This document shows positions 9,001 through 54,332 of a DNA stretch of 64,000 nucleotides, one piece after another. The notes under the pieces are model-generated. The model saw only the letters and a program-made list of their open reading frames with translations. It searched no databases and had not been told where the DNA came from. Source of the stretch: Hormiphora californensis. Lineage: Eukaryota > Animalia > Ctenophora. The DNA is taken from assembly GCA_020137815.1 (NCBI GenBank), contig CM035362.1, forward strand, positions 3,162,001 through 3,226,000. Reading direction: 5' to 3'. The stretch's first letter is position 1, and the number at the start of each line of letters is the position of its first letter. The position numbers and the translations under genes were made by a program.

Positions 9001-11764
9001 CTCCCCTGGAAAGGCTGGAACCCGAGGTGAACCCGGAACACCCGGAACTGATGGATACCCCGGTCGGGATGGAACACCCGGAACACCCGGATACCGTGGA
9101 GACCCCGGTAACCCTGGTAACCCTGGAACTCCCTCTTACAGGGATGGAAACACCGGACCTGCTGGACCCCCTGGACCCCCTGGACCTCCCAGTTATGCTC
9201 CTCCCGGACCTCCCGTAAGTGATCTCGAGACGAAATTATAGTTTACTAGATCTCAAACATTCCAAATTATTCAATATTCAATTAATGTGTCGTGATTACT
9301 GTGTATTACATATCCCAACTGGTGATTCCAAAACATGCTTATATGCCATGATACTGTGTTACCCCAAATTCCCTCAAACTCCCGAAATAACTACCAATCT
9401 CCCTCAAATAACCCCCGATACCCCCACACAGGGACCCTCCGGAAGGCCTGGATCTAAGGGACCCCCAGGAGATGCTGGTGCCCCTGGTAAGCCCGGTGAG
9501 GAGGGAGAGTGTGGTGCTGACGGACCTAACGGAATATGGATTGTAAGTTGTTTGTTACTGTTTGTTGTTGTTACTTTTCTAGTTTATAAAGGGATTGTAC
9601 AGGGAGGAGGACCCAGTAGTGGCTTGTTCTCTTAGTTAAAGTAACAAACTCTCTGCTTGTTCTCTTAGTTAAAGTAACAAACTCTCTCTCTCTCTGATCA
9701 CCACCACTTAATTACAGGGAGGAGGCCCCAGTAGTGGCCGAAAGGGGCCCGCCGGAGAAATGGGACCCCCAGGAGCTACCTTGGATACGACCTACGCCCA
9801 GGTCAATCAGTACACCATTCACTCCCAGACCATGTTCCCTCCCGACATTCCTACCGGCCGAAACATCCCAGGTGAGTGCCACACCCCACTTGCCGGTAAT
9901 ATATTACCATATATGGTGAGTCTGCACTCTTTAAGGTGGCATCGCGCTCAACCTTTCTCTTGAAAAACCTTCCAGATACAGTATGTGGTTGTTGTTATTA
10001 TATTGTCTGGTAGTTCCGCCCAGCTATAATTATATAGTACCCTATAGGCCCATTGCCACATTAATTCAGACAGGCCGGTAAGATAGGTTGCCTATTATAA
10101 ACAAGCTAAATCTCTGTCAGGCCAATAATTGACCCCAATATTTCTCCAGGATGGACCGACTTCTCCGAAGGTCGAGTGGACTTTGCTGCCAAGGTTATGG
10201 AGGGTTTCAGTAGCAGCTACTTCGGAACCTCTGATGGATCGGGTACTGGACAACCCCTCAGTTCCAGTGGATCTTGTATCAGACAGTTCAAGATTCAGCC
10301 TCATGTTGAGTGTACCAATGAAGTGTGCGAGGTATGTTAACGTAACAAACTCTCCCCGTTTGTTCTCTTAGTTAAAGTAACAAACTCTCTTTGTTCTCTT
10401 AGTTAAAGTAACAAACTCTCTTTGTTCTCTTAGTTAAAGTAACAAACTCTCTCCCAGGTCAATGGTGATGATTACAGTGTATGGATGAGCATTGCTCCTA
10501 ATGATACTTCAAAGACATTCGGAGAGTTCTACCCTCAGGAAGAGATTCTTTACGAGACTGGATTGGAGACCAGGGTACGAGTTAATCAGTTAGATTAATA
10601 CGTTTAATTAGACTAATTAGATTAATTAGTCTTACCTAACGATACTTTTTTCTGAAATGCAACCAAGTGCGTTCTTTTATAACCTTCTTCCCTCTAAGAT
10701 AAATAGGATCTTACTTCTCTAGATAATTACTGAAAGTTTATTAATTTTAACCCCGAATTAGTTAATCAATTAATGTATTTCGCAGGTAACTGATTACATT
10801 TCTCGGTGTATTGTTGTCGACTCAATCTACCCTTGGCTTGCCATTCACAGCTTCACCGATGAGGTCCCATCTTGCCCCCAGGGAAATAGCTACGGATACA
10901 GGTACATACTAGTAACTAATTAGTTAGTTAGTTAATTAGTGGAGTTAATTAGTGGCTACTGTTAATTAGCGGGGTTAATTAGTGGGTACTGTTAATTTGT
11001 GGGCTTAATTAGTTGGGGTTAATTAGCGATGTTAATTAGTAAATAAGTTACTAACTAACGACTACAACCCCCTCTCTCTCTCCCTGCAGGTTCGAATCCT
11101 ACAAATTGTGGGAGGGATACTCCCTAATCTCTGAGATGGCCGATCAAGGCAAGGCATCCAGTCAGGATCTCACACTGCCTGGATCTTGTATCAAGTAAGT
11201 GCAATCTGAAAATTAATTACCTAACTAATTAATTAATAAAATAATTAGTTAATTAATTGGCTAATTAATTAATTAGCTGATCATTTTCTACTGCAGTATA
11301 TAACCATAGCTTAACCGAAGACTGACACCGAAGACTTTCAAGTAACTACTAACCCCTTCCACTAACCGCTAACCCCGCTAACCCTTTTCCAGGAAATTCG
11401 TGCCTCTGTCAACTGCTCGATGTTCTAATTCGGGAGCCGCTGGCAAGCCCTACTGTAACTTTGCCCGATCTGGTGCAGTGAACCTCTATGTTAGGAACAG
11501 CAAGTGTACCAGTGAGGAGACAGAGGTAAATTTCAAATCCAGGATAGAAACTTTCCTTTGGAGTTTGAATAAAGCTTCATAACATGGATTAAAACTTAAA
11601 GTTCTAGTCAGCATTTTTAGTAAAAACTTTAGTGAAATTAGTAAAAATTGATTTAACACTTGGTGTAATTTCAGACGGTTGGACCTTATTCGTACGGAGA
11701 TCAGAGAGAGGACATGGATTATTACGTATCACGATGCGTCGTGTGTGTGATTAAGGGAAATTAA
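61..11764 (+). CDS. Type IV (basement-membrane) collagen alpha chain, about 1650 aa, 22 exons in window; first two bases of the first visible codon lie upstream
   Basis: Exons, all GT-AG and phase-consistent: 61-118, 349-463, 849-1003, 1110-1227, 1552-1703, 2226-2648, 2937-3089, 3797-4882, 5014-5140, 6970-7298, 7471-7614, 7734-8318, 8476-8742, 8972-9214, 9432-9542, 9718-9871, 10150-10331, 10458-10574, 10786-10901, 11090-11194, 11393-11525, 11675-11764 (TAA). Signal peptide [19 protein letters not shown], 7S-type motif DGCNGTRG, interrupted Gly-X-Y, and two C4/NC1 repeats (HSQT; [10 protein letters not shown]; YISRC; AIHS..VPSCP; LWEGYS; QDLTLPGSC; YVSRCVVC). Confidence 0.93.
464..735. repeat. 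Intronic minisatellite, about 23-bp unit (GGTAATTAGGAGCTGTAATTAAGA-like)
   Basis: Tandem units starting at the exon-2 donor. Confidence 0.85.
2820..2926. repeat. Intronic 10-bp tandem repeat (ATTAACRATA)
   Basis: Directly visible. Confidence 0.9.
3232..3810. repeat. 89-bp tandem repeat, about 6.5 copies, each containing the collagen splice acceptor and the exon start
   Basis: TCACAG|GGAGACG recurs with the AG ending at 3262, 3351, 3440, 3529, 3618, 3707 and 3796. Confidence 0.95.
5480..6857. mobile_element. Non-autonomous Tc1/mariner(pogo)-like DNA transposon in a collagen intron
   Basis: TIR CCGTAATCTGGGGTAACTTTG / CAAAGTTACCCCAACTTACGG, TA on both sides, internal GGGGTAACTTTG repeats in both orientations, no transposase ORF. 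Confidence 0.75.
7307..7460. repeat. Intronic 11-bp tandem repeat (CTAACAACTCC)
   Basis: About 14 copies fill the intron. Confidence 0.95.
8815..8923. mobile_element. 109-bp hAT-like MITE
   Basis: TIR CAGGAACCGACCG / CGGTCGGTTCCTG, 8-bp TSD CTGTGATG. Confidence 0.85.
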
Positions 11765-18100: not shown

Positions 18101-21100
18101 GGCCCTAGTTACCCCTCGGTTGTCCCTAGTTACCTTGCAACAGCGCTATCGAACACGAGCAGCATTATTTGTAGAAAGTACACGTTGTTTAAGTAACACG
18201 ATAGAATTCCCATTGCGAAACAGGGTGCTATGTGGAGTTCCCAACTACTGGCTACCACCGAGTATGCAACCACTGTTTGGGGTAAATAGTGGGGTTACAA
18301 AATAGTTAGATAATATTGGGGTTAGATACTAAAGTCGGATTTTTTGAAACTGTCGCCTCCCCCCCCCCCTTTCACGCGCGGCTTCGTATTTGCGTGTGAC
18401 AGCCCCCACTTGCTCTCACTTTTCGGCAAAAAACCGCATATCATCGGAAAGAGCATAATTTTGTGAGTCCATAAAACTTTGGTTTGACGAAATTGGTCAA
18501 GAAACAAAGGCGTGAACGCGAAAACAAGTTTCCGACACGCATATAAAAACTCGCGTGCCACCCAGGGGGGCGACAGTTTCAAAAAAAAATCCGACTTTAG
18601 CTGTTGGGAATGCTAAATTCATCAATCACACACTGCAGTCTGGCGGCGCCACATCTCGCATCACTCTTTTCCATCCCAAAATAGGCTGTGCCATCATATA
18701 CGGTATGGTCAAAGTAGTGTATAAAATGGAACCGCTGTTTAAACTTCAATAAAAACCAACAAATCTATCATTTCAAAATTTATATTAAAAAAAACTATTG
18801 AATCGCGGATCTTGCTTTTTACTTCCGTAGAGGAACCGACCGAATCAGGATATACTGGTCCCTGATTGGCTGATAACCACTACCAGTCACGTGACCTAAA
18901 TACCGAGTTCTAATTGCTTGTTTACTTGTGTCGGTCGGTTCCTACTTCTGAACTTACTAGAGTGTATGTGGAAGGCAAGGAAGAAGTGATTGAAGGAAAG
19001 GGAAACACAGAAAACGAACGTAAAATTATCAACTTCCTTCCACCTGAGAAAATAAATGATAAATTATGAAAAGTTTTGAAAATGCAATTATGAAGAAAAC
19101 TTTCATGATACGAACCCAGGACTTTCAGCTACCATAGAAATGAAAAACCTAGGGTTAAAAACTAAGTGGATCTAAAATCATGAAAAAGTGACCAAAAAGG
19201 TGACCAATACTGACTGACCAATTTACAAAAAATTTTGAAAAAAAGGATACTGCACCGGGGATTCCCAGGCGGTCACCCATCCAAGTACTAACCCGGCCTG
19301 CGGTTGTTTAACTTCCGAGATCGAACGAGATCGGGTGCATTCAACCGAGTATGGCCGTATCCGACATTCAACAATTTCACACCCCTTTATACCTATTCCA
19401 ATCTTCAAATTACCCGTCCCCCAATTGTGTAAACCCCAATTTTCCGGAAGGAAACACTCAGAACACTGCAAAGAGACATTTTTATACGAACCACCATGAC
19501 CTGACTGTCGACTGAGACTGAGAGAAATCACACAACACACACGGACCCCATGACGATTCTATTTTACTATTTTCAATTTATTATCGCCCTCCCGATGGGA
19601 AGGCAGACCAAAAGGAAGTGTTACCGGTCTCCGAAGAGAGCCAGTTGAACACTAGAACTCAGCTTACCTCAAATTAATTTGTTTAAAGTAGTGTTGAAAA
19701 GTTTGAAACTGCTGATGGAGTCTCGGACCTGCCTCCCATCCCCCAGTATGCTACGAGTCCCGTGCAGGTGACCTTTCCAAATATGGAATAATTCAACTCA
19801 AGAAAGCGTACCACGTGACCCTGTCACGTGCTTCATTGAGGCCAATCGCCAACCACCTGCGCCGGCAAGGGGCTTGGAACATGTTTGGCGCTGACAAGGG
19901 CCCACATTCGCGATTGTGATTTCTGTGTGTTAGTGATGTCACCCCTATCACATAACATGCACCAGGTGTTCTGATATACTCCAGTGATTTACTAGAAAGG
20001 AACAGAACAGCGGGTAACAGAACAGAACAGAAATTACAAAAGTGCACGACTCAAATATCACATTATAAATTACCAACACATAAAAAGACAAATGCAAATT
20101 AAAACCGTGCCAGGTGTATTGATAAAGTGTTACCGAAACACAGGGAATTTTGAAACTTTTTATTTGTAAAACAAATTAAGAATGGTTTTGTTTAAAAAAA
20201 TAATAAAATTAAGTTCTTTCAACTTTAATTTTCATCTTTTAAATCTTTTAAAAGTAGTAACGTCTTTTCAATAACACTGAAAATATTTGCAAACTCTTCA
20301 GTATATTTTAGAAACAATTTTTTAACATCTTCAATGCTCTTCTTATCAATTATTTTAATCAATTTTCGTTCTTTTGCGTTCAATCTTATTCGCTGGAAAA
20401 CAACAAGTGGAATCACCCCATACTTTAAACCAGTAAACAAAGTTTTAAAAGATTGTAAAAGTTGGTTATTACGTGCCACTTTTGTAAATTTCTTCTGAGC
20501 AATCAATTGACTGAGTTCTAGAAAATCAGCTATGCTTTTATCATTAATTATTGAATTGGAAAAATCGTTAAAAGTACTGTCCTTAAAATTAGTTATAAAT
20601 TCATCAATTTGCTTTTCAAACATTTTAATGCGACTCAAATGCTGTTTCGACTCCATCAGCTTTGTTTTGTATAGACGTTCAAACTTGCGAGCCTGTTGAT
20701 CTCGCAGTTGGTACAACTCCTTGTAATTTGGAATTTTTGTAGCTTCTATAATAGTGGAATTTTCTTTTTTGGTATCCATATCTCCAGGTTTGCCTTGACT
20801 ACCATCGGCTGTAACGCAATCATTGGTACCGTCTAATGTAGTATTTTCAATAGGGTTTCCGTTATAATGATCACGGTTTTTGTGGTCAAGGAGTTCATAA
20901 AAGAAGGGAAACGATTTGTCGCACAAGTCACAAGCTTTCATGGTGTGAAGAAATGCGTCAATTGCCTCCTTATATACCCCATGAGTTGAAAATTATTTAC
21001 TGCAATTAGGGCATGTATTTTCACATTCCGGAAACAACTTGTTCATAATATTATTAACCAATTCTGGATTCTGATTTAGCAATTCCCGAATTTCAAATAA

Positions 21101-24100
21101 TGACATAGATTCCTTAATGGCATTCACAAGTAGAGCTTCGCGCTCTGTTAGTTCAGCAGTACTGAGACCAACGTCAGTAAGATCATGTTTCAAAGCAAAA
21201 CAATGAAGTAAGCTTTGATATTTTGGGACAGAAAATTCATCATCCGATACATTTGAGAGTGAGTCAGATTCTGAATCTGACATGTGCTCTGAACCCATTT
21301 CCTCGGACATTTCAAGTTGACGCGTTTTTGAAATAGACATGATTGGAAATGAGCTGAATACAATTTGCACTTGCTTTTATAGTCCCAATTTACATGATTA
21401 AATTTACACTTTTTCCAGTGCTATATTTTGAAAGTTACAAAATTAATGTTGCAGCGGCGTTCCATTCTAATTTGTACTGTTCCTGTGTAATATAAACGCG
21501 TTCCGTCGAACTTAGTTGCTGTTCCTTTCTAGTTTGTACTGTTCCTTTGTAATGTAAAACTGTTCCGTCGAACTTAGTTGCTGTTCCCTTCTAACTTGTA
21601 CTGTTCCTGTGTAATGTAAAACTGTTCCGACGTTCCGTCGAACTTAGTTGCTGTTCCTTTCTAATTGGTACTGTTCCTTTATAATATAAAACGTGTTCCG
21701 TCGAACTTAGTTGCTGTTCATTTCTAATTTGTACTGTTCCTGTGTAATGTAAAATTGTTCCGTCGAAATAAGTTGCTGTTCCATTCTTATCTGTACTGTT
21801 CCTGTGTAATGTAAAACTGTTCCTTTCTAATTTGTACTGTTCCTGTGTAATTAAAAAGTGTTCCGTCGATCCTTGCTGTTCCAGTGCTGTTCCTTTCTAA
21901 TTTGTACTGTTCCTGTGTTATGTAAAACTGTTTCTTCGAACTTAGTTGCTGTTCTTTTCAAATTTTTACTGTTCCTGTGTAATATAAACGTGTTCCGTCG
22001 AACTTAGTTTCTGTTCCCTTCTAATTTGTACTGTTCCTTTGTAATATGAAACTGTTCCTTTTTAATTTGTACTGTTCCTGTGTATTGTAAAAGTGTTCCG
22101 TCGAACTATGTTGCTGTTCCTTTCTAATCTGTACTGTTGCTGTGTAATGTAAAACTGTTCCGTTAATCTTAATTGCTGTTCCAGTGCTGTTCCTTTCTAA
22201 TCTGTACTGTTCCTGTGTAATGTAAAACTGTTCCGTCGAACTTAGTTGCTGTTCCTTTCTAATCTGTACTGTTCCTATGTAATGTAAAACTGTTCCGTCG
22301 AACTTAGTTGCTGTTCCTTTCTAATTGGTACTGTTCCTGTGTAATGTAAAACTGTTCCGTCGAACTTAGTTGCTGTTCCTTTCTAATTTGTACTGTTCCT
22401 GTGTAATGTAAAACTGTTCCGTCGAACTTAGTTGCTGTTCCTTTCTAATCTATACTGTTCCTGTGTAATATAAAACTGTTCCTTTCTAATTTGTACTGTT
22501 CCTCTGTAATGTAAAACTGTTCCGTCGAACTTAGTTGCTGTTCCTTTCTAATTTGTACTGTTCCTGTGTAATGTAAAACTGTTCCGTCGAACTTAGTTGC
22601 TGTTCCTTTCTAATTGGTACTGTTCCTGTGTAATGTAAAATTGTTCCGTCGAAATAAGTTGCTGTTCCATTCTTATCTGTACTGTTCCTGTGTAATGTAA
22701 AACTGTTCCTTTCTAATTTGTACTGTTCCTGTGTAATTAAAAAGTGTTCCGTCGATCCTTGCTGTTCCAGTGCTGTTCCTTTCTAATTTGTACTGTCCTG
22801 TGTTATGTAAAACTGTTTCTCGAACTTTTGCTGTCTCTACTTGTCGTTCTTGTAAGAAACTTTTTCCGACGTTCGCGACTAGTTGCTGCCTTCTAATTGT
22901 ACTGTTCCTATATATAACGTGTTCCTCGAACTTAGTTCTGTTCATTTCTAATTTGTACTGTTCCTGTGTATGTAAAATTGTTCCGTCGAAATAGTTGCTG
23001 TTCCATTCTTATCTGTACTGTTCCTGTGTAATAGTAAAAACTGTTTTCCTTTCTAATTGTACTGTTCCTGTGTAATAAAATGTTCCGTCGATCCTCTAGT
23101 GCTGTTCCTTCTAATTGTACTGTTCCTGTTGTAAACTGTTCTCGACTTAGCTGTTCTTTCTTTTACTGTTCTGTGTAATATAACGTGTTCCGTCGAACTT
23201 AGTTTCTGCCTTTAATTTGTACTGTTCCTTTTAATCCTGGTTTTATTTGTACTGTTGTTATGTAAAAGTTTCCGTCGAACTTGTTGCTGTCCTTTCTAAC
23301 TGTACTGTTTGCTGTTAATGTAAACTGTTCCGTAATCTAAGCTGTTCCAGTGCTGTTCCTTCTAATTGTACTGTCCTGTGTAATGTAAAAACTGTTCCGT
23401 CGAACTTAGTTGCGTTCTTTTAATTGTACTGTTCCTATGTAATAAAACTGTCCGTCGAACTAGTTGCTGTTCATTCTAATTGTACTGTTCTGTTAATGTA
23501 ACTGTTCGTCAATGTTGCGTTCCTTTTCTATTGTACTGTTCTGTATAAATGTTCCTTCGCTTCGTTGCTGTTCTTTAATCTATACTGTTCTGTGTATTAA
23601 ACTGTTCCTATTCTATTTGTACGTTCTCTGTATGTAAAACTGTTCGTCGAACTTAGTTGCTGTCTTTCTAATTGTACTGTTCCTGTGTAATTAAAACGTG
23701 TTCGTCGAACTTAGGTTTGCTGTTCCTTAATTGTACTGTTCTGTTGTAATGTAAATTGTTCCGTCGAAATAGTTGCTGTTCCATTTTATTGTCTGTTTGT
23801 GTATGTATAAAACTGTCCTTTTAATTTGTACTGTTCCTGTGTAATTAAAAGTGTTCCGTCGATCCTTCGTTCCAGTGCTGTTCCTTTCTAATTTGTACTG
23901 TTCCTGTGTTATGTAAAACTGTTTCGTCGAACTTAGTTGTGTTCTTTTCAAATTTTACTGTTCGTGTAATAAAACGTGTCCGTCGAACTAGTTTTCTTTC
24001 CTTCTAATTGACTGTTCCTTTGTCTATGAAATGTTCCTTTTAATTTGTACTGTCCTGGTTATGTAAAAGTGTTCCGTCGAACTATGTTGCGGTTCCTTTC

Positions 24101-26485
24101 TAATCTGTACTGTTCTGTGTAATGTAAAACTGTTCCGTTATCTAATTGCTTTCCAGTGCTGTTCTTTCTAATCTGTACTGTTCTGTGTAATGTAAAACTG
24201 TTCGTCGAAACTTAGTTGCTGTTCCTTTCTAATCTGGTACTGTTCTATGTAATGTAAAAACTGTTCCGTCGAACTTAGTTGTGTTCCTTTTATTGGTACT
24301 GTTCTGGTAATGTAAAAACTGTTCGTCGAACTTAGTTTGTCTGTTCCTTTCTAATTTGTACTGTTCCTGTGTATGTAAAACTGTTCCGTCGAACTAGTTG
24401 CTGTTCCTTTCTATCTATACTGTTCCTGTGTATATAAAACTGTTCCTTTCTAATTTGTACTGTTCCCTGAATGTAAAACTGTTCCGTCCGAACTTAGTGC
24501 TGTTCCTTTCTAATTGTACTGTTCCTGTTAATGTAAAACTGTTCCGTCGAACTTAGTTGCTGTTCCTTTCTAATTGGTACTGTTCCTGTGTAAGGTAAAA
24601 TTGTTCCGCGAAATAAGTTGCTTTCCATTCTTATCGTGTACTGTCCTGGTAATGTAAAACTGTTCCTTTCTAATTGTACTGTTTCCTGTGTAATTAAAAA
24701 AGTGTCCGTCGATCCTGCTGTTCCAGTGCTGTTCCTTTCTAATTTGTACTGTTCCTGTGTTATGTAAAACTGTGTTCGTCAACTTAGTTGCTGTTCTTTC
24801 AAATTTTACTGTTTCCTGTGTAATATAACGTGTTCCGTCGAACTTAGTTTCTGTTCCACTTCTAATTTTGTACGTTCCTTTCTGTAATATGAACGTTCCT
24901 TTATTAACTTCTGTTATTGTAAAAGTGTTCCGTCGACTATGTGCTGTTCTTTCTAATCTGTACTGTTGCTGTTAATGTAAAGCTGTTCCGTTAATCTTAT
25001 TGCTGTCCAGTGCTGTCCTTTCTAATCTGTACTGTGCCTGTGTATATGTAAAACTTTTTCCGTCGAACTTAGTTGCTGTGTCCTTCTAATCTGTACTGTT
25101 CCTATGTAGTAAAACTGTCCGTCGATCTAGGGTTGCTGTTTCTTTCTAATTGTATTTCCTGTGTAATGTACTGTTCCGTCGAACTTGTGCGTTCCTTCTA
25201 AATTTTACGTTCTGTGTATGTAAAACTGTTCCGTCGAACTTAGTTGCTGTTCTGTTCTAATACTGCATAATAATGTCTGTGTATATAAACTGTTCCTTGT
25301 TAATTGTACTGTTCCTCTTGTAATGTAAAACTGTTCCGTCGAACTGTAGTTCTCTGTCCTTTCTAATTTGTACTGTTCCTGTGTAATGTAAAACTGTGTC
25401 TCGTCGAACTTAGTTGCTGTTCCTTCTAATTGGTACTGTTCCTGTGTAATGTAAAACTGTTCCGTCGAACTTAGTTGCTGTTCCTTTCTATTTGTACTGT
25501 TCCTGTGTAATGCAAACTGTTCCGTCGAACTAATTGTTTGCTGTTCCTTTCTAATCTGTACTGTGCTGTGTAATGTAAAACTGTCCGTTTAACTAATTGC
25601 TGTTCCAGTGCTGTTCCTTTCTAATTTGTACTGTTCCTGTGTAATGTAAAATTGTTCCGTCGAACTTAGTTGCTGTTCCTTTCTAATCTGTACTGTTCCT
25701 GTGTAATGTAAAACTGTTCCGTCGAACATAGTTGGTGTTCCTTTCTAATCTGTACTGTTCCTGTGTAATGTAAAACTGTTCCGTCGAACTAGTTGCTGTT
25801 CCTTTCTAATTTGTACTGTTCCTGTGTAATGTAAAAACTGTTCCGTCGAACTAGTTGCTGTTCCTTTCTAATTTGTACTGTTCCTGTGTAATGTAAAACT
25901 GTTCCGTCGAACTTAGTTGCTGTTCCTTTCTAATCTGTACTGTTCCTGTGTAATATAAAAGCGTTCCGTCACCCTCTCTCTATTATTTTGGTAAAATTAT
26001 CTCTCTATCTCTATCTCTCTGTCCCTCCCTCTCGATAATACAATACTGTATGAGTCGAGTGCTGTAAATACACATATTTTGGGTGACAAGTCCCATGTTC
26101 ACAGTAAACAGTTGTAGTACATGTTAATATTGTTCTTTTGTGTGAGATTTCGATTGGGAGTTCGCAAATATGCTTGTTGTTGCATACTGTTGTCTTCCTT
26201 TCTCTTTTACCATCTGTCAGGCCAATGCTCTGACCACAGTTCTCGCACGAGAATGGGTCAGGCAATGCTTTGACAGTTTACCATAGTCCATATAAGTTCA
26301 CTTGAATTTTGATTCATTTATCAGTGGTAATTGGCTATTAATAATAGCAGCCGTCAAGCATTAGAGTCTTATGTTGAGAGGAAGAGAGGCATACCCATAA
26401 GAGAGAAAGATATTGAGTTTGTGTGCATCATGTTACCTACTGCAGCAGGTGTGGAGAGGGACAGAGAGAGAGAGGGATGTTAGAT

Positions 26486-26520
<35 letters not shown>

Positions 26521-26697
26521 AGACGAGAGAGAGAGAGAGGCGAGAGAGGAGGAGAGAGAGTAGAGAGAGAGAGACAGGAGAGAGAAGGGAGAGAGAGAGA
26601 TAGAGAGTAGGGGAGAGAGGGAGAGGAGAGGAGGAGGGAGAGGGAGAGAGGAGAAGAAGGGAGAGGAGAGGTGACGAGAAGGAGAGAAAGCGAAGAG

Positions 26698-26778
<81 letters not shown>

Positions 26779-26850
26779 CGAGAGTGAGAGAGAGTGAGAA
26801 GAGAGAGAGGAGAGGAGAGAGAGAGAGAGAGAGAGAATGTGTGTGAGAGA

Positions 26851-26884
<34 letters not shown>

Positions 26885-29800
26885 AACAGCAACTGGAAGA
26901 TGAGATCATCATTTGAGTAGTGATCCAAGATTCCAAGAGGTATAGATCAGAGAAGTAGACAATTACAAGTCCGGAATGCTGGCTCCTACTACTGCAAGGA
27001 GAGAGAGTGAGTCGTTGTGTGATGTTTCCCTCACTCTCAGTCAGTGGTTCACAAATGTATTATATGCTTGACATGTTCCTCGTCTGACTGTCAGCTCTGT
27101 CACAACGGAAATTCAGTACATTGGCCATTGGGGGACGGATAATTTCAGGAATAAACAAAGTATAAAGGGGTTCGAAATTGTTGAATGTCGGATACGGCCA
27201 TACTCGGTTGAATGCACCCGATCTCGTTCGATCTCGGAAGTTAAACAACCGCAGGCGGGTTAGTACTTGGATGGGTGACCGCCTGGGAATCCCCGGTGCA
27301 GTATCCTTTTTGATTTTTTTTTCAAATTTTTAAAAGATCGGTCACCCATCTTTTTGGTGACTTTTTTGGGTCATTTTCACGTTAATTCCTATGATCTGGA
27401 ATGACAGCGAGAATCTCACAGAGAATCTCACAGATTTGCGAAGAGTTGCTGCAGAGCTGGTAGAGCTAGAGCTGACATGTGAGGGCTAGAGAGGCTCGCG
27501 ATTGGCTTTGAAGATCACGTGACAGGGTCACGTGGTTCCGCTGCACTTAGCGTTTGGAATTATCCATATTTGGAAAGGCCACCTACACGTGACTCGTGGC
27601 GTACTGGGGGATGGGAGGGAGGTCCGAGACTCCATCAGCAGTTTCAAACTTTTCAACACTACTTTAAACAAATTAATTTGAGGTAAGCTGAGTTCTAGTG
27701 TTCAACTGGCTCTCTTCGGAGGCCGGTAACACTTCCTTTTGGTCTGCCTTCCCATCGGGAGGGCGATAATAAATCGAAAACATTAAAGAGAAGATCGTGG
27801 GGTTCGTGTGCGTTGTGTGATTTCTCCTCCATCATCTCAGTCAGTGGTTCGTATAAAAATGTCTCTTTGCCGTGTTCTGAGTGTTTCCTTCCGGAAAATT
27901 GGTTCACATTGGGACGGGTAATTTGAATTGGAATAGTATAAAGGGGTGAATTGTTGAATGTCGGATACGGCCATACTCGGTTGAATGCACCCGATCTCGT
28001 TCGATCTCGGAAGTTAAACACCGCAGGCCGGGTTAGTACTTGGAGGGTGACCGCCTGGGAATCCCCGGTGCAGTATCCTTTTTGATTTTTTTTTTTAAAT
28101 TGGTCATCAGTATTGGTGACTTTTTTGGTCATTTTCAAGTGATTACTATTCCTTCTCTGGAATCAGCGAGATCAAGAGAATCTCACAGATTGTGAGTGCT
28201 GCTGCAGTAATAAGCTGGGGCTGACATGTGAGGCTAGAGAGCTTGCGATTGGCTTGAAGCACGTGACAGGGTCACGTGGTACGCTTTCTGGTTGAATTAT
28301 TCCATATTGGAAAGGCACCTACACAGGACTCGTGCTACTGGGGGATGGGAGAGGTCCGAGACTCCATCAGCAGTTTCAAACTTTTCAACACACTTTAAAC
28401 AAATTAATTTGAGGTAAGCTGAGTTCTAGTGTTCAACTGGCTCTCTTCGGAGGCCGGTAACCCTTCCTTTGGTCTGCCTTCCCATCGGGAGGGCGATAAT
28501 AAATTGAAAATATAAAAGGAACGTCGTGGGGTCGTGTGTGTTGTGTGATTTCTCTCAGTCCATGACAGTCAGGTCATGTGGTTGAAAAAATGTCTCTTGC
28601 AGTGTTCTGAGTGTTCCTTCCGGAAAAATGGTTTACACATTGGGGGACGGATAATTGAAAGGAATGTATAAAGGGGTTGAAATGTTTGAATGTCGGATAC
28701 GGCCATACTCGGTTGAATGCACCCGATCTCGTTCGATCTCGGAAGTTAAACAAGCAGGCGGGTTAGTACTTGGATGGGTGACCGCCTGGGAATCCCCGTG
28801 CAGTATCCTTTTTTTCAAATTTTTTTTAAATTGGTCAGTCAGTATTGGTGACTTTTTGGTCACTTTTCAAGTGAATTGACTGGTAGTCTTTTCCGATTCT
28901 TGGAAAGGTCAACTAAGAGAGAATCTCACCGATTTGGAGTGTGCTGCTGCAGCAGTATAGACTGCAGCTGACAGTGAGGCTAGAGAGCTGCGATGGCCTT
29001 GAAGCACAGTGACAGGGTCACGTGGTACGCTGCTTGCGTTGAATTATTCCATATTTGGAAAGGCCACCTACACGGGACTCGTGCTATGGGGGATGGGAGG
29101 AGGTCCGAGACTCCATCAGCAGTTTCAAACTTTTCAACACTACTTTAAACAATAATTTGAGGTAAGCTGAGTTCTAGTGTCAAATGGCTCTCTTCGGAGC
29201 CGGTAACACTTCCTTTTGGTCTGCCTTCCCATCGGGAGGGCGATAATAAATTAAAATATAAAAAGAAGAACTCATGGTCGTGTGTGTTGTGTGATTTCTC
29301 TCATCTCAGTCGATCAGTCAGCATGTTTTATGTATAATGTCTCTTTGCAGTGTTTGAGTGTTCTTCACGGAAAATTGTACTTATGGGGGACGGGTATTTG
29401 AAGAATAAAGTATAAAGGGGTTGGAATTGTGAATGTCGGATACGGCCATACTCGGTTGAATGCACCCGATCTCGTTCGATCTCGGAAGTTAAACAACCGC
29501 AGGCCGGGTTAGTACTTGGATGGGTGACCGCCTGGGAATCCCGGTGCAGTATTCTTTTTCAATTTTTTTTTAAATTGTCATTCAGTATTGGTGACTTTTG
29601 GTCACTTTTTCAGTGAATTGACATGATTTCCTATTTGGAAAGTCAACAGAGAGAGAATCTCACAGATTTGTGAGCTGCTGTGCTCGTGCAGTATAGCGGG
29701 CAGCTGAAATGTGAGGCTAGAGAGGCTTGCGATTGGCCTTGAAGTCACGTGACAGGGTCACGTGGTACGTTTTGAGTTGAATTATTCCATATTTGGAAAG

Positions 29801-32800
29801 GCACCTACACGGGATCGTGCTACTGGGGGATGGGAGGAGGTCCGAGACTCCATCAGCAGTTTCAAACTTTTCAACACTACTTTAACAAATTAATTTGAGG
29901 TAAGCTGAGTTCTATGTTCACTGGCTCTCTTCGGAGCCGGTAACACTTCCTTTTGGTCTGCCTTCCATCGGGAGGGCGATAATAAATTGAAAACTTACAA
30001 AAACGGAAGTGCGGTCGTGGTTGTGTGTGATTTCTCTCATCTCAGTCCAGTGGTCATGTGGTTCTATAAAAAGTCTCTTTGCAGTGTTTGAGTGTTGTCC
30101 TTCGGAAAATGGATTTACCATTGGGGGACGGGTAATTGGAAAATAAGTATAAAGGGGTGAAATTGTTGATGTCGGATACGGCCATAATCGGTTGAATGCA
30201 CCGATCTCGTTCGATCTCGGAAGTTAAACAACCGCAGGCCGGGTTAGTACTTGGATGGGTGACCGCCTGGGAATCCCCGGTGCAGTATCCTTTTTTTCAA
30301 ATTTTTTTGTAAATTGGTCAGTCAGTATTGGTGACTTTTGGTCACTTTTCAAGATGATTGATGGTAGTCTTTTAGTTCTCTTTGGAAGGTCAACTAGAGA
30401 GAGAATCTCACAGATTGTAGCTGCTGCTGCAGCAGGAATAAGCTGGGCAGCTGACATGTGAGGCTAGAGAGCTTGCGATTGGCTTTGAAGCACGTGACAG
30501 GGTCACGTGGTACTCTTGGTTGAAATTATTCCATATTTGGAAAGGACCTACACGGACTCGTGCTACTGGGGGATGGGAGGAGGTCCGAGACTCCATCAGC
30601 AGTTTTAAACTTTTCAACACTACTTTAAACAAATTAATTTGAGGTAAGCTGAGTTCTAGTGTTCAACTGGCTCTTTCGGAGCCGGTAACACTTTCTTTGG
30701 TCTGCCTTCCCATCGGGAGGGCGATAATAAATTGAAAACATTAACAAACGGAAAGTATGCGTGTCGTGTGTCGTTGTGTGATTTCTCTCTCTCAGTCGAT
30801 GCGTCAGTCATGGTGGTTCGTATAAAAAGTCTCTTTGCAGTGTTCTGAGTTTCCTTCCGGAAAAATTGGTACACATTGGGGGACGGTAATTTGAAGAATA
30901 AAGTATAAAGGGGTGGAATTGTTGAATGTCGGATACGGCATACTCGGTTGAATGCACCCGATCTCGTTCGATCCGGAAGTTAAACAACCGCAGGCCGGGT
31001 TAGTACTTGATGGGTGACCGCCTGGGAATCCCCGGTGCAGTATCCTTTTTTTCAAATTTTTTTTTAAAATTGTCAGTCAGTACTTGGTGACTTTTTTGGT
31101 CACTTTTCAAGATGAATTGACATGGTAGTCTTTCGTTCTCTTTGAAAGTCAACTAAGAGAGAATCTCACAGATTTGGAGTGCTGCTAGCAGCTAAGACTG
31201 GCAGCTGACATGTGAAGCTAGAGAGCTGGATTGGCCTTGAAGACACGTGACAGGGTCACGTGGTACGCTTCTGCGTTGAATTATCCATATTTGGAAAGGC
31301 ACCTACACGGGACTCGTGCGTACTGGGGGATGGGAGGAGGTCCGAGACTCATCAGCAGTTTCAAACTTTTCAACACTACTTTAAACAAATTAATTTGAGG
31401 TAAGCTGAGTTCTAGTGTTCAACTGGCTCTCTTCGGAGCCGGTAACACTTCCTTTTGGTCTGCCTTCCCATCGGGAGGGCGATAATAAATTGAAAATATA
31501 AAAGAAGTATGGGGTCGTGTGTGTTTTGTGATGTCTCTTCTCGACAGTCAGGTCATGTGTGTATAAAAATGTCTTCTTGACAGTGTCTGAGTGTTTCTTT
31601 CGGAAATTGGTTCACATTGGGGGACGGATAATTGAAATGGAATAGTATAAAAGGGTGTGAGAATGTTGTGAATGTCGGATACGGCCATACTCGTTGAATG
31701 CACCCGATCTCGTTCGATCTCGGAAGTTAAACAACCGCAGGCCGGGTTAGTACTTGGATGGGTGACCGCCTGGGAATCCCCGGCAGTATCCTTTTTTTAT
31801 TTTTTTTTTTAAATTGGTTCAGTCATATGGGACTTTTTGGTGACTTTTTGTGATTGACATGGTAGTCTTTTCCGTTTCCTCTTGAAAGGGTCAATAGAGA
31901 GAATCTCACAGATTTGTGAGCTGTGCTGCAGAGTAATAGTGGGCAGCTGACATGTGGAGGCTAGAGAGCTTGCGATTGGCCTTGAAGCACGTGACAGGGT
32001 CACGTGGTACGCTTTCTGGTTGAATTATTCCATATTTGGAAAGGCCACCTACACGGGACTCGTGCTACTGGGGGATGGGAGGAGGTCCGAGACTCCATCA
32101 GCAGTTTCAAACTTTTCAACACTACTTTAAACAAATTAATTTGAGGTAAGCTGAGTTCTAGTGTTCAACTGGCTCTCTTCGGAGCCGGTAACACTTCCTT
32201 TTGGTCTGCCTTCCATCGGGAGGGCGATAATAAATTGAAAATATAAAAAAGAATGTCATGGTGTGTCCGTGTGTGATCTCTCAGTCTCAGTCCAGTCAGG
32301 TCATGTGGTTCGTATATAAAATGTCTCTTGCCGTGTTCTGAGTGTTCCTTCCGGAAATTGGTACAGCCATTGGGGGACGGGTAATTTGAAGATAAAAGTA
32401 TAAAGGGGGTGAAATTGTTGAATGTCGGATACGGCCATACTCGGTTGAATGCACCGATCTCGTTCGATCTCGGAAGTTAAACAACCGCAGGCCGGTTAGT
32501 ACTTGGATGGGTGACCGCCTGGGAATCCCCGGTGCAGTATCCTTTTTTTTCAATTTTTTTTGTAAATTGGTCAGTCAGTATTGGTGACTTTTGGTCACTT
32601 TTCAAAATGAATGACATGGTAGTCTTTCCGTTTCCTCTTTGGAATCAGCAGATAGAGGGAGAGAATCTCACAGATTGTGAGCTGCTGCTGCTGCGCAGTA
32701 ATAGTCGGGCAGCTGCTCGTGAGAGCCTAGAGAGCTGGTTTCTAGCGAACAGCTCTTGTCAGCGCCACACAATTTTGGTAATTAGAAATCACGTGACATG

Positions 32801-34391
32801 CTCATACAATATTAAATATGTACCACGTTTTTAGGTGACGACAAAGTACTATTTTATCTACTACTACCAATACTGACTGACCAATTTACAAAAAAATTTG
32901 AAAAAAAGGATACTGCACCGGGGATTCCCAGGCGGTCACCCATCCAAGTACTAACCCGGCCTGCGGTTGTTTAACTTCCGAGATCGAACGAGATCGGGTG
33001 CATTCAACCGAGTATGGCCGTATCCGACATTCAACAATTTCACACCCCTTTATACCTATATTCCAATCTTCAAATTACCCGTCCCCCAATTGTGTACACC
33101 CAAATTTTCCGGAAGGAAACACTCAGAACACTGCAAAGAGACATTTTTATAATACGAACCACCATGACCTGACTGTCGACTGAGACTGAGAGAAATCACA
33201 CACGACACACACGGACCGGCCATGACGGTTCTATTTTACTATTTTCAATTTATTATCGCCCTCCCGATGGGAAGGCAGACCAAAAGGAAGTGTTACCGGT
33301 CTCCGAAGAGAGCCAGTTGAACACTAGAACTCAGCTTACCTCAAATTAATTTGTTTAAAGTAGTGTTGAAAAGTTTGAAACTGCTGATGGAGTCTCGGAC
33401 CTGCCTCCCATCCCCCAGTATGCTACGAGTCCCGTGTAGGTGACCTTTCCAAATATGGAATAATTCAACTCAAGAAAGCGTACCACGTGACCCTGTCACG
33501 TGCTTCATTGAGGCCAATCGCAAGCTCTCTAGGCTCTCACATGTCAGCTGCCCGAATATTACTGCAGCAGCAGCTCACAAATCTGTGAGATTCTCTCTCT
33601 AGTTGACCTTCCCAAAGAGGAAACGGAAAAGACTACCATGTCAATTCATCTTGAAAAAGTGACCAAAAAGTCACCAATACTGACTGACCAATTTACAAAA
33701 AAATTTGAAAAAAAGGATACTGCACCGGGGATTCCCAGGCGGTCACCCATCCAAGTACTAACCCGGCCTGCGGTTGTTTAACTTCCGAGATCGAACGAGA
33801 TCGGGTGCATTCAACCGAGTATGGCCGTATCCGACATTCAACAATTTCACACCCCTTTATACCTATATTCCAATCTTCAAATTACCCTATGTCGCTTAAA
33901 AAGTCTTAAATATGCCGAAGGTACCGGGTTCGTATCCTTGTTTTTTCCTATGATATAACTGAATGAAGTTGAACTAATACGATTTACTATTCTTATTTTT
34001 ATACTATCATGAATGCTTTTCACTAACCTCTCAAGTATGGCGCTGATAATGACTGCTACATTTGAAAATGCTGCTACGAATGTGATCCCAATAAACAGCA
34101 GACACAGACCTAGAAAGGTTGAAATAATCTTACTTTCTTTTCTCGTTATTACTATCATTCGAAAGTAGAATACGGCACAGTTATTCGATAAAATTTTACT
34201 AGTTTTCTCAAGTTTTATTTAGGCCGGTACGTCTGTGAACCCCGTGTTTACAATCAAACAAATTGTTTACCAGTTGATTCCCATATGGGTCTCGTTAAGG
34301 AGCTGTTAAAACTGGCCATCATTTGTTCCGTGTCCAATACTGCTAACAGCGAGTCACCAGGGGCGGGCTGGAATCGCCCTGTCAATGTCAT
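15186..34391 (-). CDS. Divergent class-A-like 7TM GPCR, at least 9 exons, with a 15-kb second intron
   Basis: Exons in transcription order, all GT-AG and phase-consistent: 34391-34271 (MTLTGRF..FNSS..WEST), 34109-34028 (TM1 LCLLFIGITFVAAFSNVAVII), 19043-18958 (TM2 FVFCVSLSFNHFFL), 18272-18134 (W..C, TM3 ..LLVFDSA), 17818-17734 (TM4 TWMIGVLP), 17340-17186 (ECL2 Cys, TM5 FLIIPL), 16919-16752 (TM6 FCLTTLPY), 16214-16080 (TM7 IFIPIIY). The tail is ambiguous (acceptor at 15946 or 15812; probable last exon starting at 15308). The start codon is also uncertain. Confidence 0.8.
17610..17718. mobile_element. hAT-like MITE, same family as 8815
   Basis: Same TIRs, 8-bp TSD CTTAATTT. Confidence 0.85.
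17885..18133. repeat. Intronic GTTACCCC/GTTGCCCC minisatellite
   Basis: Directly visible, degenerate units. Confidence 0.75.
18329..18600. mobile_element. MITE with about 30-bp TIRs
   Basis: CTAAAGTCGGATTTTTTGAAACTGTCGCC ... GGCGACAGTTTCAAAAAAAAATCCGACTTTAG; TSD not clear. Confidence 0.65.
18830..18944. mobile_element. Degenerate copy of the hAT-like MITE
   Basis: AGGAACCGACCGAATCAGG ... TCGGTCGGTTCCT. Confidence 0.75.
19245..19362 (-). rRNA. 5S rRNA
   Basis: GGATACGGCCATAC...GATCTCGGAAGTTAA...GTTAGTACTTGGATGGGTGACCGCCTGGGAA...GTATCC followed by a T-run; terminal stem pairs. Confidence 0.95.
19586..19710 (-). ncRNA. Spliced-leader (SL) RNA gene; leader exon 19710-19668
   Basis: AGTTTCAAACTTTTCAACACTACTTTAAACAAATTAATTTGAG|GTAAG, UUCG hairpin, Sm-like CCTTTTGG, 3' hairpin. 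Confidence 0.9.
20225..20941 (-). CDS. Intronless 238-aa ORF with one N-terminal C2H2 zinc finger and a probable coiled coil; function unknown
   Basis: CDLCDKSF..FYELLDHKNRDH; TATATAA about 30 bp upstream; AATAAA at about 20160 downstream. Confidence 0.6.
   Translation of the reverse strand: MKACDLCDKSFPFFYELLDHKNRDHYNGNPIENTTLDGTNDCVTADGSQGKPGDMDTKKENSTIIEATKIPNYKELYQLRDQQARKFERLYKTKLMESKQHLSRIKMFEKQIDEFITNFKDSTFNDFSNSIINDKSIADFLELSQLIAQKKFTKVARNNQLLQSFKTLFTGLKYGVIPLVVFQRIRLNAKERKLIKIIDKKSIEDVKKLFLKYTEEFANIFSVIEKTLLLLKDLKDEN
20993..21340 (-). CDS. Intronless 115-aa acidic/Ser-rich ORF with C-terminal CxxxCxxC; function unknown
   Basis: First ATG at 21340 (MSISKTRQ); TATAAAA at 21381-21375; tandem with the 238-aa ORF. 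Confidence 0.45.
   Translation of the reverse strand: MSISKTRQLEMSEEMGSEHMSDSESDSLSNVSDDEFSVPKYQSLLHCFALKHDLTDVGLSTAELTEREALLVNAIKESMSLFEIRELLNQNPELVNNIMNKLFPECENTCPNCSK
21455..25970. repeat. 62-bp satellite built from three CTGTTCC-led sub-units, about 4.5 kb
   Basis: Unit CTGTTCCGTCGAACTTAGTTG-CTGTTCCTTTCTAATTTGTA-CTGTTCCTGTGTAATGTAAAA; the middle is indel-rich. Confidence 0.95.
26455..26885. repeat. Degenerate (GA)n microsatellite
   Basis: Directly visible. Confidence 0.9.
27190..27306 (+). rRNA. 5S rRNA (array copy)
   Basis: Same sequence as the 19245 copy, T-run after. Confidence 0.9.
27640..27764 (+). ncRNA. SL RNA gene (leader 27640-27682)
   Basis: Leader, GTAAG, hairpins. Confidence 0.9.
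27963..28078 (+). rRNA. 5S rRNA (array copy)
   Basis: As above, small indels. Confidence 0.9.
28372..28494 (+). ncRNA. SL RNA gene (leader 28372-28413)
   Basis: As above. Confidence 0.88.
28695..28808 (+). rRNA. 5S rRNA (array copy)
   Basis: As above, small indels. Confidence 0.9.
29121..29241 (+). ncRNA. SL RNA gene (leader 29121-29161)
   Basis: As above. Confidence 0.88.
29438..29554 (+). rRNA. 5S rRNA (array copy)
   Basis: As above. Confidence 0.9.
29858..29977 (+). ncRNA. SL RNA gene (leader 29858-29899)
   Basis: As above. Confidence 0.88.
30174..30290 (+). rRNA. 5S rRNA (array copy)
   Basis: As above. Confidence 0.9.
30601..30722 (+). ncRNA. SL RNA gene (leader 30601-30643)
   Basis: As above. 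Confidence 0.88.
30931..31045 (+). rRNA. 5S rRNA (array copy)
   Basis: As above, small indels. Confidence 0.9.
31357..31480 (+). ncRNA. SL RNA gene (leader 31357-31399)
   Basis: As above. Confidence 0.9.
31677..31791 (+). rRNA. 5S rRNA (array copy)
   Basis: As above, small indels. Confidence 0.9.
32103..32225 (+). ncRNA. SL RNA gene (leader 32103-32145)
   Basis: As above. Confidence 0.9.
32427..32542 (+). rRNA. 5S rRNA (array copy)
   Basis: As above. Confidence 0.9.
32908..33025 (-). rRNA. 5S rRNA
   Basis: 118 nt, matches the 19245 copy; TATAAA about 30 bp upstream; T-run after. Confidence 0.95.
33258..33382 (-). ncRNA. SL RNA gene (leader 33382-33340)
   Basis: Clean copy with leader, donor GTAAG, two hairpins and Sm-like site. 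Confidence 0.92.
33484..33518 (-). promoter_or_regulatory. Putative SL RNA distal promoter: paired E-boxes and a CCAAT box
   Basis: CACGTGAC-CCT-GTCACGTG inverted repeat 100-120 bp upstream of the leader, CCAAT 11 bp further; recognisable in all SL units. Confidence 0.55.
33715..33832 (-). rRNA. 5S rRNA
   Basis: 118 nt, 807 bp from the previous copy, which gives the clean unit length. Confidence 0.95.
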
Positions 34392-53068: not shown

Positions 53069-54332
53069 ATGTCAGAAATTCGGGAGGATTATGAGGGTTA
53101 CCAAAGAACGGATGTGGAAAGCTGGATCCTCCTACTTTGGACTTTCTTTTCGTTTTCTATGGGTAAGTAATTTCATTTTTTGCTCCTTCATAAACATTTT
53201 TGTTTGGGAAAACAATTAAATTGCTCCTTCATAAACTACCCCATCTTTCTACACAGGTATCGTTGGAAACATGACGATCATAATAGCCGTCCCACGGAAG
53301 GGAATCAACCTTGATAAACTCTCGCTCATCCTAATCCGTAACCTGGCCGTATCTGACCTTCTCTTTGCCCTGATTTGGATTCTTCCAACCCTCATTTCCC
53401 TCCTCGCCGGAGAGATATGGGTCATGGGGACAGGCCTGTGTCATGCTACCACGTATCTCCAGTACACCACAGCCATTGTTACTATCTGTCTCATCACCAT
53501 TCTGGCTAGTAACCGGTATGTGAGGTGTGCGTGGCCCCTAAAATCGTGGAAACCCACCACTAAAACAGCCTGGCTGATAACCGTCGGGAGTTGGATTGTG
53601 GCATTCATCCACCCCGGAACTTACTTTATTTCAAATCTGATAAGAGAGAGTGATAAGAGGGAAATTAGCTACTATCCTCCAAAATCCTCCTGTGATTACG
53701 GTTTCCCAGCAACCCTATCACCCTACTGGACGAGTGTGGATATGATCATGGCGATAGTGTACACTTTCATCCCCTCAGCTACCATGATGCTGGTGAATGG
53801 TGCCCTTCTAAAACTCGTCCAGGGCAAGACTCACTACAACAAGTCTAATCTCTTTTTGACGGTTATTCTCACCGCCATGTTTTTACTTTCTTACATGCCC
53901 TTTGCAATCAGATACACTCTCATACTAGCAGGGTTGGATCATGTTATTAACAATCAGTTCCGAACTCTCATGAACTTTATGCTCTACACCAACTCGTGGT
54001 CCAACATATTCGCATATTACTTCACCAATGAGACTTTCAGGAGATTCATTGGATGTGTGGTTACCAGGAAAACGTTCATTCCTCGTCGTCCCTCCCTGGT
54101 CACATCAGTCATAATAGAAAACACTACACTGGAGCTGTTAAAAAGCCGGAGTGCTTCGCTGGGGAATGTGCTAGCTGTTAATTTTCGAAGGGGTTCTAAT
54201 GTCAGTAGTTTGGGGAGTCTGACACCACGGGGAATGAGGAGTATGAGCGTGGTTGATGCACCCTCACCCGGGATGGGCAGGATTCTGAGGATCAAGGGGT
54301 TGGAGGATATAAAGGATGAATTAGAGTGCTAG
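53069..54332 (+). CDS. Class A (rhodopsin-like) GPCR, 389 aa, 2 exons
   Basis: Exons 53069-53162 and 53257-54332; GN (TM1), NLAVSDL (TM2), W..G..LC, NRY, FLLSYMP, NIFAY. Confidence 0.92.

Follow-up and report, generated by a model that had tools for sequence, protein, structure and literature searches.

Genes for spliced leader (SL) RNAs are linked to genes for 5S ribosomal RNA (5S rRNA) in Hydra, Oikopleura and some protists, and SL-5S units are also known in Caenorhabditis briggsae. The 5S ribosomal DNA-SL1 cluster of C. elegans is made up of over 100 tandem units of about 1 kb, each with one 5S gene that RNA polymerase III (Pol III) transcribes and one SL gene transcribed by RNA polymerase II (Pol II), and ATTF-6 is a factor acting at this cluster (bioRxiv 10.64898/2026.01.07.698080). 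A review states that most SL genes adjoin 5S genes (PMC3795323). In the ctenophore Hormiphora californensis, a leader has been reported on 56% of Iso-Seq reads and in 718 copies in the genome, and the 2010 study of expressed sequence tags is noted there as having had no genomes (PMC8527503). The main text of PMC8527503 deals with the leader only and covers neither an SL RNA gene, with its donor, intron and Sm site, nor 5S ("5S r" and "ribosomal" occur 0 times). We analyzed 64,000 nt of H. californensis DNA (GenBank assembly GCA_020137815.1, contig CM035362.1, positions 3,162,001 to 3,226,000 of the forward strand), referred to here as the window, and identified a repeat unit that we hold with high confidence to be an SL RNA gene linked to a 5S rRNA gene in a tandem unit.

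The two genes have opposite orientations in the C. elegans cluster and lie on the same strand in the window unit. The leader is 43 nt in the window compared to about 22 nt in C. elegans, with sequence homology only in the terminal TTTGAG (PMC7986045). The SL RNAs of calanoid copepods are similar to that of the window in having a long leader (44-47 nt), a similar RNA size, and genes that are in tandem or clustered with 5S genes; the copepod leader sequence is unrelated (PMC4664967). The leaders of the Hydra SL-B type (46 nt) and of Schistosoma (36 nt) are likewise long and their Sm sites likewise deviant, whereas their SL RNAs are shorter (107 and 90 nt, respectively) and unrelated in sequence (PMC7986045).

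Rfam (RF00001) identified eleven 5S rRNA genes in the window, all of them full-length (model positions 1-120) and scoring 81-106 bits against a cut-off of 38. Eight are on the plus strand between 27190 and 32543, and 3 are on the minus strand (Table 1). When the clean SL block of about 135 nt was used as a blastn query against the window, 9 copies of the block (about 125 nt) were recovered at 96-100% identity, 7 on the plus strand (27.6-32.2 kb) and 2 on the minus strand (33251-33385 and 19579-19713); the spacers, in comparison, vary. These counts agree with a first-pass annotation of the window, made from the sequence alone, which had reported 11 5S and 9 SL copies including an outlying unit at about 19.2-19.8 kb. 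That annotation had also placed the two genes on the same strand, and every one of the 9 SL copies is indeed co-oriented with its neighboring 5S gene. The 5S gene of the unit begins 357 nt downstream of the leader start. The units are arranged head-to-tail with one SL and one 5S gene each. The distance between two clean minus-strand 5S genes (174/175 nt identical by blastn) gives a period of 807 bp, the length previously assigned to the clean unit. A 23-nt probe for the leader, with 3 mismatches allowed at most, recovered 8 of the 9 copies and had 0 matches in 100 shuffles, so the leader recurs beyond chance; the copy that was missed carries a 1-nt deletion. The region from 27.0 to 33.9 kb comprises a plus-strand block (approximately 27000-32736) opposed to a minus-strand block (32866-33888), with about 130 bp of other DNA between them. 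The earlier description of one tandem array at 27000..33887 was therefore correct with regard to linked SL-5S units but not with regard to a single run.

All parts of the SL block that had been proposed (a 43-nt ATG-free leader, GTAAG, a hairpin with a UUCG loop, a pyrimidine stretch and a 3' hairpin) were located in the clean copy. The leader is identical to the 43 nt published for the H. californensis SL, which has one extra 5' G (PMC8527503), and the match to the ctenophore SL given in the first-pass annotation is borne out. All 9 copies have a C before the leader in the genome, and the first G of the published sequence is therefore probably not templated. GTAAG directly follows the leader in 9 of 9 copies, providing a GT donor. 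A 139-nt stretch containing the block is predicted to fold at -41.8 kcal/mol (z = -3.89), and 0 of 200 shuffles were as stable. The predicted fold has three hairpins, as expected of an SL RNA, with the donor in the first and the other two flanking a putative Sm-like site. Six natural substitutions were mapped onto the fold: 4 are unpaired, another leaves stem II as it was or better, and the last costs a terminal U-G pair. The candidate Sm-like tract is a 9-nt pyrimidine run ending in GG, approximately 50-60 nt past the donor and between hairpins II and III; unlike the C. elegans site, it is non-canonical. SL RNAs of Schistosoma, Ciona, Hydra and copepods also deviate from the Sm consensus (PMC7986045, PMC4664967). 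The Schistosoma site is long, pyrimidine-rich and ends in UUUGG (PMC7986045), and copepods have the relaxed site RR(U+C)6-12RR, compared to which the window tract is preceded by CA and so has one purine only (PMC4664967).

We searched for the leader on unrelated mRNAs using a gapped leader pattern in JGI-type metagenome contigs, which returned at least 121 loci; the counts given here refer to the 121 loci listed, 41 of which have only short flanks. The leader core was no more than 22 nt from a contig end in 103 of them. Each of the 70 contig-terminal loci with at least 900 nt downstream had a sense open reading frame (ORF) of at least 100 amino acids that started within less than 200 nt and was longer than any antisense ORF, and there were only 5 similar pairs among the downstream sequences of all 121. 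The exact leader core of the window was present in 9 loci (8 of them contig-terminal), and 105 carried one other variant. The downstream sequences had no blastn match to genes of the window, and tblastn returned collagen-repeat similarity only. The pattern of leader plus donor had no match in collections of viral contigs or genome contigs.

Sequencing runs were available as assembled contigs, and summed contig depth, which in X5 was much greater over the unit than over its flank, was not used as a measure of copy number or expression; runs X18 and X20 (a small share) and X21-X24 were left out of the contig analysis. In RNA run X19, the leader bin had a contig depth of 2184, compared to 0 for the intron and 5S bins, and contigs ran off into unrelated sequence at 33336-33340. 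X16 likewise had loose ends at 33338, together with contigs, possibly from DNA, that covered the gene, promoter and 5S. One contig over the SL gene was present in each of X15 and X17. The first-pass annotation had named a leader never joined to unrelated mRNAs as grounds for rejecting its interpretation; the leader was found at the head of unrelated ORF contigs, and RNA contigs leave the unit at the donor. Together with the leader, donor and fold, these data support the interpretation of the unit as the genomic source of the trans-spliced leader.

The SL-5S linkage is real. It recurs in 9 units, including two clean copies 13 kb apart. In addition, contig 19 of X7, an independent marine metagenome, is 421 nt long and contains an SL part corresponding to 33236-33369 (3 differences) and a 5S part corresponding to 32935-33057 (2 differences), in the same order as in the window and with a spacer that could not be aligned. 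In contig 18 of X7 (381 nt), the 3' end of a 5S gene runs on into the upstream region of the next unit (25 differences, 7 gaps). These two contigs indicate a diverged relative with the same tandem unit. Both genes were also present in organism B (X9), with none of the contigs listed bridging SL and 5S.

Upstream of the leader, the blocks at approximately -82 to -70, -60 to -51, -36 to -22 and -16 to -1, along with paired CACGTG palindromes, carry almost none of the substitutions listed for the relatives X7 and X16. Pol III terminates at T-runs. The SL block has T4 runs at nt 11 and 98 and no T-run at its end, which by this rule suggests that it is made by Pol II; the clean 5S gene ends in a T7 run, the expected Pol III oligo-T terminator. 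We propose that Pol II would use the conserved upstream blocks to transcribe a capped RNA of about 125-130 nt, that Sm proteins would likely load onto the pyrimidine tract between hairpins II and III, and that the resulting SL small nuclear ribonucleoprotein (snRNP) would pass its exon on to pre-mRNAs at AG acceptors. The 5S rRNA would be transcribed separately by Pol III, which would stop at the T7 run. The linkage would most likely allow the SL gene to amplify and homogenize with the 5S array, which does not require a regulatory role. A similar G-rich motif was observed on the minus strand upstream of both the 5S gene (33078-33088) and the SL gene (33404-33417). By analogy with ATTF-6 at the C. 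elegans cluster, this motif could be a site for a shared factor.

Several observations weigh against the unit being a working SL RNA gene linked to 5S. By eye, the canonical Sm consensus (AT4-6G, or AC?T4-6G of nematode SL RNAs) is absent from the region 20-60 nt past the donor, and two C's interrupt the U-run. The minimum free energy structure pairs the Sm-like tract, mostly through weak G-U pairs, and opening it into the three-hairpin form costs 4.4 kcal/mol. Two of the 4 unpaired substitutions come from an X17 contig of a relative (depth 2) and alter bases within the tract itself. Among the matches listed for organism A, which are short contigs, none bridges SL to 5S. The intron of the window follows the leader in 0 of the 121 metagenome loci, none of which had a blast match to the intron, 5S or promoter. 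No small capped RNA was seen in the runs, which as assembled contigs cannot show starts, ends, strand or level. Lastly, the two clean copies hold the minority allele at 8 listed sites, and may be orphons rather than part of the active array.

This last point bears on the rival scenario that survives best, in which the SL-5S repeat is real but the window has only silent orphons or copies that are in part misassembled, with the working array located elsewhere. We consider this scenario possible, if on balance doubtful. The inverted layout with 130 bp of foreign DNA is consistent with it, as are the combination of minority alleles in the clean copies with truncated units, the neighboring 62-bp satellite and GA repeat, and the condition of the plus-strand units. 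The latter are 732-773 bp long and 84-90% identical to the clean unit by blastn and alignment. Their eight 5S copies have 17 deletions, 0 insertions and 2 substitutions, so that all length errors are deletions, and their 7 SL copies have 17 deletions and 6 substitutions. The spacer bin 32260-32341 of a plus-strand copy was uncovered in 4 of 4 DNA-type runs, whereas the roughly matching bin of the clean copy was covered in 4 of 4; contigs that fit both bins go partly to the better place, and this contrast is therefore supporting rather than decisive. Because errors are dominated by deletions and the spacer bin is uncovered, the plus-strand copies read as sequence error, and the run looks like uncorrected long-read sequence rather than evolving genes. 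We also considered that these copies were degenerate pseudogenes, which was ruled out by the 17 deletions compared to 2 substitutions in 5S and by the uncovered bin.

At the 8 sites mentioned above (including 33300, 33403, 33421 and 33424), most DNA contigs differ from the clean copy, and the plus-strand copies have either the majority letter or, in the run to which that letter gives rise, a loss of one base (by eye at the four sites named). They were therefore read from real array DNA, and their exact sequence and layout are probably assembly noise over real majority-type units. In addition, the upstream region, donor and hairpins of the clean SL gene are intact. The orphon or misassembly scenario concerns the locus and not the nature of the unit, which we continue to interpret as an SL RNA gene linked to 5S.

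The leader was internal, rather than contig-terminal, in 18 of the 121 metagenome loci. Retroelement-like sequence follows the leader in 11 of these 18 (L011, L019, L020, L025, L030, L039, L043, L054, L067, L098 and L105), and likewise in the contig-terminal loci L001 and L044. Of the others, L121 is a fold-back artefact, L063 is probably a chimeric transcript, L115 is probably due to chance, and L089, L104, L107 and L111 have an internal leader and fall outside the retroelement-like set. L020 encodes ORF1 of a long interspersed nuclear element (LINE) and then the beginning of an endonuclease (PF03372, E = 3.6e-4) that is truncated where the locus stops, and L011 is similar to it (E = 3e-17). 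L043 has a protease-reverse transcriptase frame, with an aspartyl protease match above the cut-off and RVT_1 at E = 2.9e-6, and a 2OG-Fe(II) domain is present in L030 and L001. PHD-like fingers, weak in Pfam, occur in several leader-headed ORFs, and a search of the L044 ORF against PDB matched its PHD finger only; PHD fingers are common in ORF1 of CR1/L2 elements (PMC4120745). The ORFs of L019 and L025 and ORF1 of L020 had no match in Pfam, and no longer homologues of the L030 ORF were found.

In L019, L039 and L054 a common sequence follows the leader and the upstream flanks are unrelated, which places the element boundary at the leader. The variant at the internal loci is that of another ctenophore-type species; among the loci listed, the window's type was internal only in L107. 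Judging from these contig sequences, this arrangement suggests that trans-spliced retroelement RNAs were reinserted with the leader as their 5' end. Transcripts of transposable elements are trans-spliced in Hydra (PMC12220107), and leader-tagged retrogenes are known in dinoflagellates. Our literature searches turned up no account of ctenophore genomic elements headed by the leader. In the DNA-type runs X1 (10+13) and X5 (14), contigs leave the unit exactly at the donor, at window positions 32145 and 33340; they may represent copies headed by the leader in the genome of this organism, or the libraries may be RNA.

Such elements could lend some weight to the idea that the block in the window is itself a short interspersed nuclear element derived from the leader, or a retroposed fragment, carried as a passive passenger in the 5S spacer. 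We find this highly improbable. The leader-headed retroelement copies have no intron part after the leader, whereas in the window the leader is followed by the donor and a structured block that is conserved in relatives with diverged spacers, and the block has neither a poly(A) tail nor an ORF. U1, U2 or U5 is linked to 5S in other animals, and the architecture of the block, with a pyrimidine tract between hairpins, is like that of a small nuclear RNA (snRNA). The possibility that it is a known snRNA or small nucleolar RNA linked to 5S can nonetheless be virtually discounted, since its 5' part is spliced onto mRNAs and no Rfam family was matched at gathering score, an outcome on which the first-pass annotation had also made its reading depend; a scan of the spacer gave 8 matches at E ≤ 10, all far below the cut-off, with a best E of 0.34. 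The region is noisy and repetitive, but a linkage created by the assembly is next to inconceivable given the same order and spacing in the 9 units, the distance between the two clean copies, and the single X7 contigs 18 and 19.

The features of the SL-5S repeat, which we thus take to be a tandem unit of linked SL RNA and 5S rRNA genes, are listed in Table 1.

Table 1. Positions of SL-5S repeat features in the window, with strand and basis of assignment.
Feature	Position	Strand	Basis or remark
Outlying 0.8 unit: promoter blocks, SL gene (leader start 19710), 5S (19362-19244), terminator	19177..19849	-	97.9% to clean unit; SL and 5S 100%
Error-rich head-to-tail run, ~7.6 units	27000..32736	+	blastn, alignment, contig coverage
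5S rRNA gene	27190..27307	+	Rfam
SL block, leader start 27640	27637..27771	+	blastn 99%
5S rRNA gene	27963..28079	+	Rfam
SL block	28369..28501	+	blastn 97%
5S rRNA gene	28695..28809	+	Rfam
SL block	29118..29248	+	blastn 96%
5S rRNA gene	29438..29555	+	Rfam
SL block	29855..29984	+	blastn 96%
5S rRNA gene	30174..30291	+	Rfam
SL block	30598..30729	+	blastn 96%
5S rRNA gene	30931..31046	+	Rfam
SL block	31354..31487	+	blastn 99%
5S rRNA gene	31677..31792	+	Rfam
SL block	32100..32232	+	blastn 99%
5S rRNA gene	32427..32543	+	Rfam
Non-unit DNA between opposed blocks; first ~70 nt part of another repeat	32737..32865		contig tables, sequence
Clean block, 1.27 units (5S-spacer-SL-spacer-5S)	32866..33888	-	sequence, blastn
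5S rRNA gene, then T7 Pol III terminator	32907..33025	-	Rfam 106 bits; T-run
Conserved A/T-rich block after hairpin III, candidate 3'-box	33242..33257	-	near-identical in 9 aligned copies
3' stem-loop III; predicted RNA end ~33255-33258 (125-128 nt)	33258..33276	-	fold
Pyrimidine-rich Sm-like site, non-canonical, putative	33280..33289	-	between hairpins II and III
Stem-loop II, UUCG loop	33290..33324	-	fold; commonest natural variant (33300) keeps or improves stem
Splice donor GTAAG; GU predicted paired with leader in stem I	33335..33339	-	sequence; fold
43-nt spliced leader (exon), clean SL RNA gene	33340..33382	-	published H. californensis leader minus first G; RNA contigs pile up and leave at 3' end
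Upstream conserved blocks (reverse CCAAT, paired CACGTG palindromes, G-rich ~-36 to -22), candidate Pol II snRNA-type promoter	33383..33521	-	free of listed X7/X16 substitutions
5S rRNA gene, one 807-bp period upstream; TATA-like motif 33855-33862	33714..33832	-	Rfam, blastn, sequence

The array ends at 19849 and 32736 are broken at the same position of the unit, to within about 2 nt, immediately ahead of the reverse CCAAT box. The DNA beyond these two junctions is directly joined in X5 contigs, and GGTT is present at both. More speculatively, whole SL-5S units could have been integrated into another repeat with a short duplication and later inverted or misassembled. An AT-rich intronless reading frame, split by one stop, occupies 20225-21376 on the minus strand between the outlying unit and a satellite. 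Its ORF at 20228-20992 has a weak C2H2-like finger (Pfam E = 0.011; best Atlas value 0.88, below the reliable range), and weak Atlas leads for the frame point to unnamed zinc-finger clusters, some of them viral; the frame is possibly part of a mobile element. The satellite (21459-25970) is 4.5 kb long with a repeat of about 62 bp (20-21-bp subunits), clean at its ends and degraded in the middle, and is followed by a 430-bp GA repeat (26454-26884). Elsewhere in the window, a multi-exon collagen gene (1536-9635) and ORFs resembling seven-transmembrane receptors (53235-54332, plus strand; 55376-56086, minus strand) were recognized by eye. No tRNA genes were found in the window.

The leader, its trans-splicing and its 718 genomic copies are already known, as is SL-5S linkage as the usual arrangement. 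No earlier description appears to exist of the SL gene, of its deviant Sm site or of the leader-headed retroelements. Searches of the full-text literature found no description of a ctenophore SL RNA gene or SL-5S link, but these searches missed several key sources, and there is an appreciable, if minority, chance that the linkage in ctenophores is already in print. Our fullest claim has two parts. [quoted passage not shown] The second is that its leader forms the 5' end of reinserted LINE- and Gypsy-like elements, with the boundary set by trans-splicing and part of the 718 copies retroposed. We advance the two together only tentatively, with belief and doubt nearly in balance and doubt slightly ahead.

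SL-5S linkage is expected by specialists and is a modest surprise; the leader-headed retroelements are more surprising. If true, they would bear on the counting of genomic leader matches and on the way in which such elements set their 5' ends. It has been hypothesized that SL RNAs may arise repeatedly from snRNA genes within 5S arrays (PMC4233971), and the ctenophore SL-5S unit is a data point on this question. The region upstream of the SL gene is a candidate for a strong, compact promoter in this model phylum. Ctenophores trans-splice more than half of their mRNAs, and the full gene makes their SL snRNP testable with regard to size, cap, Sm binding and polymerase.

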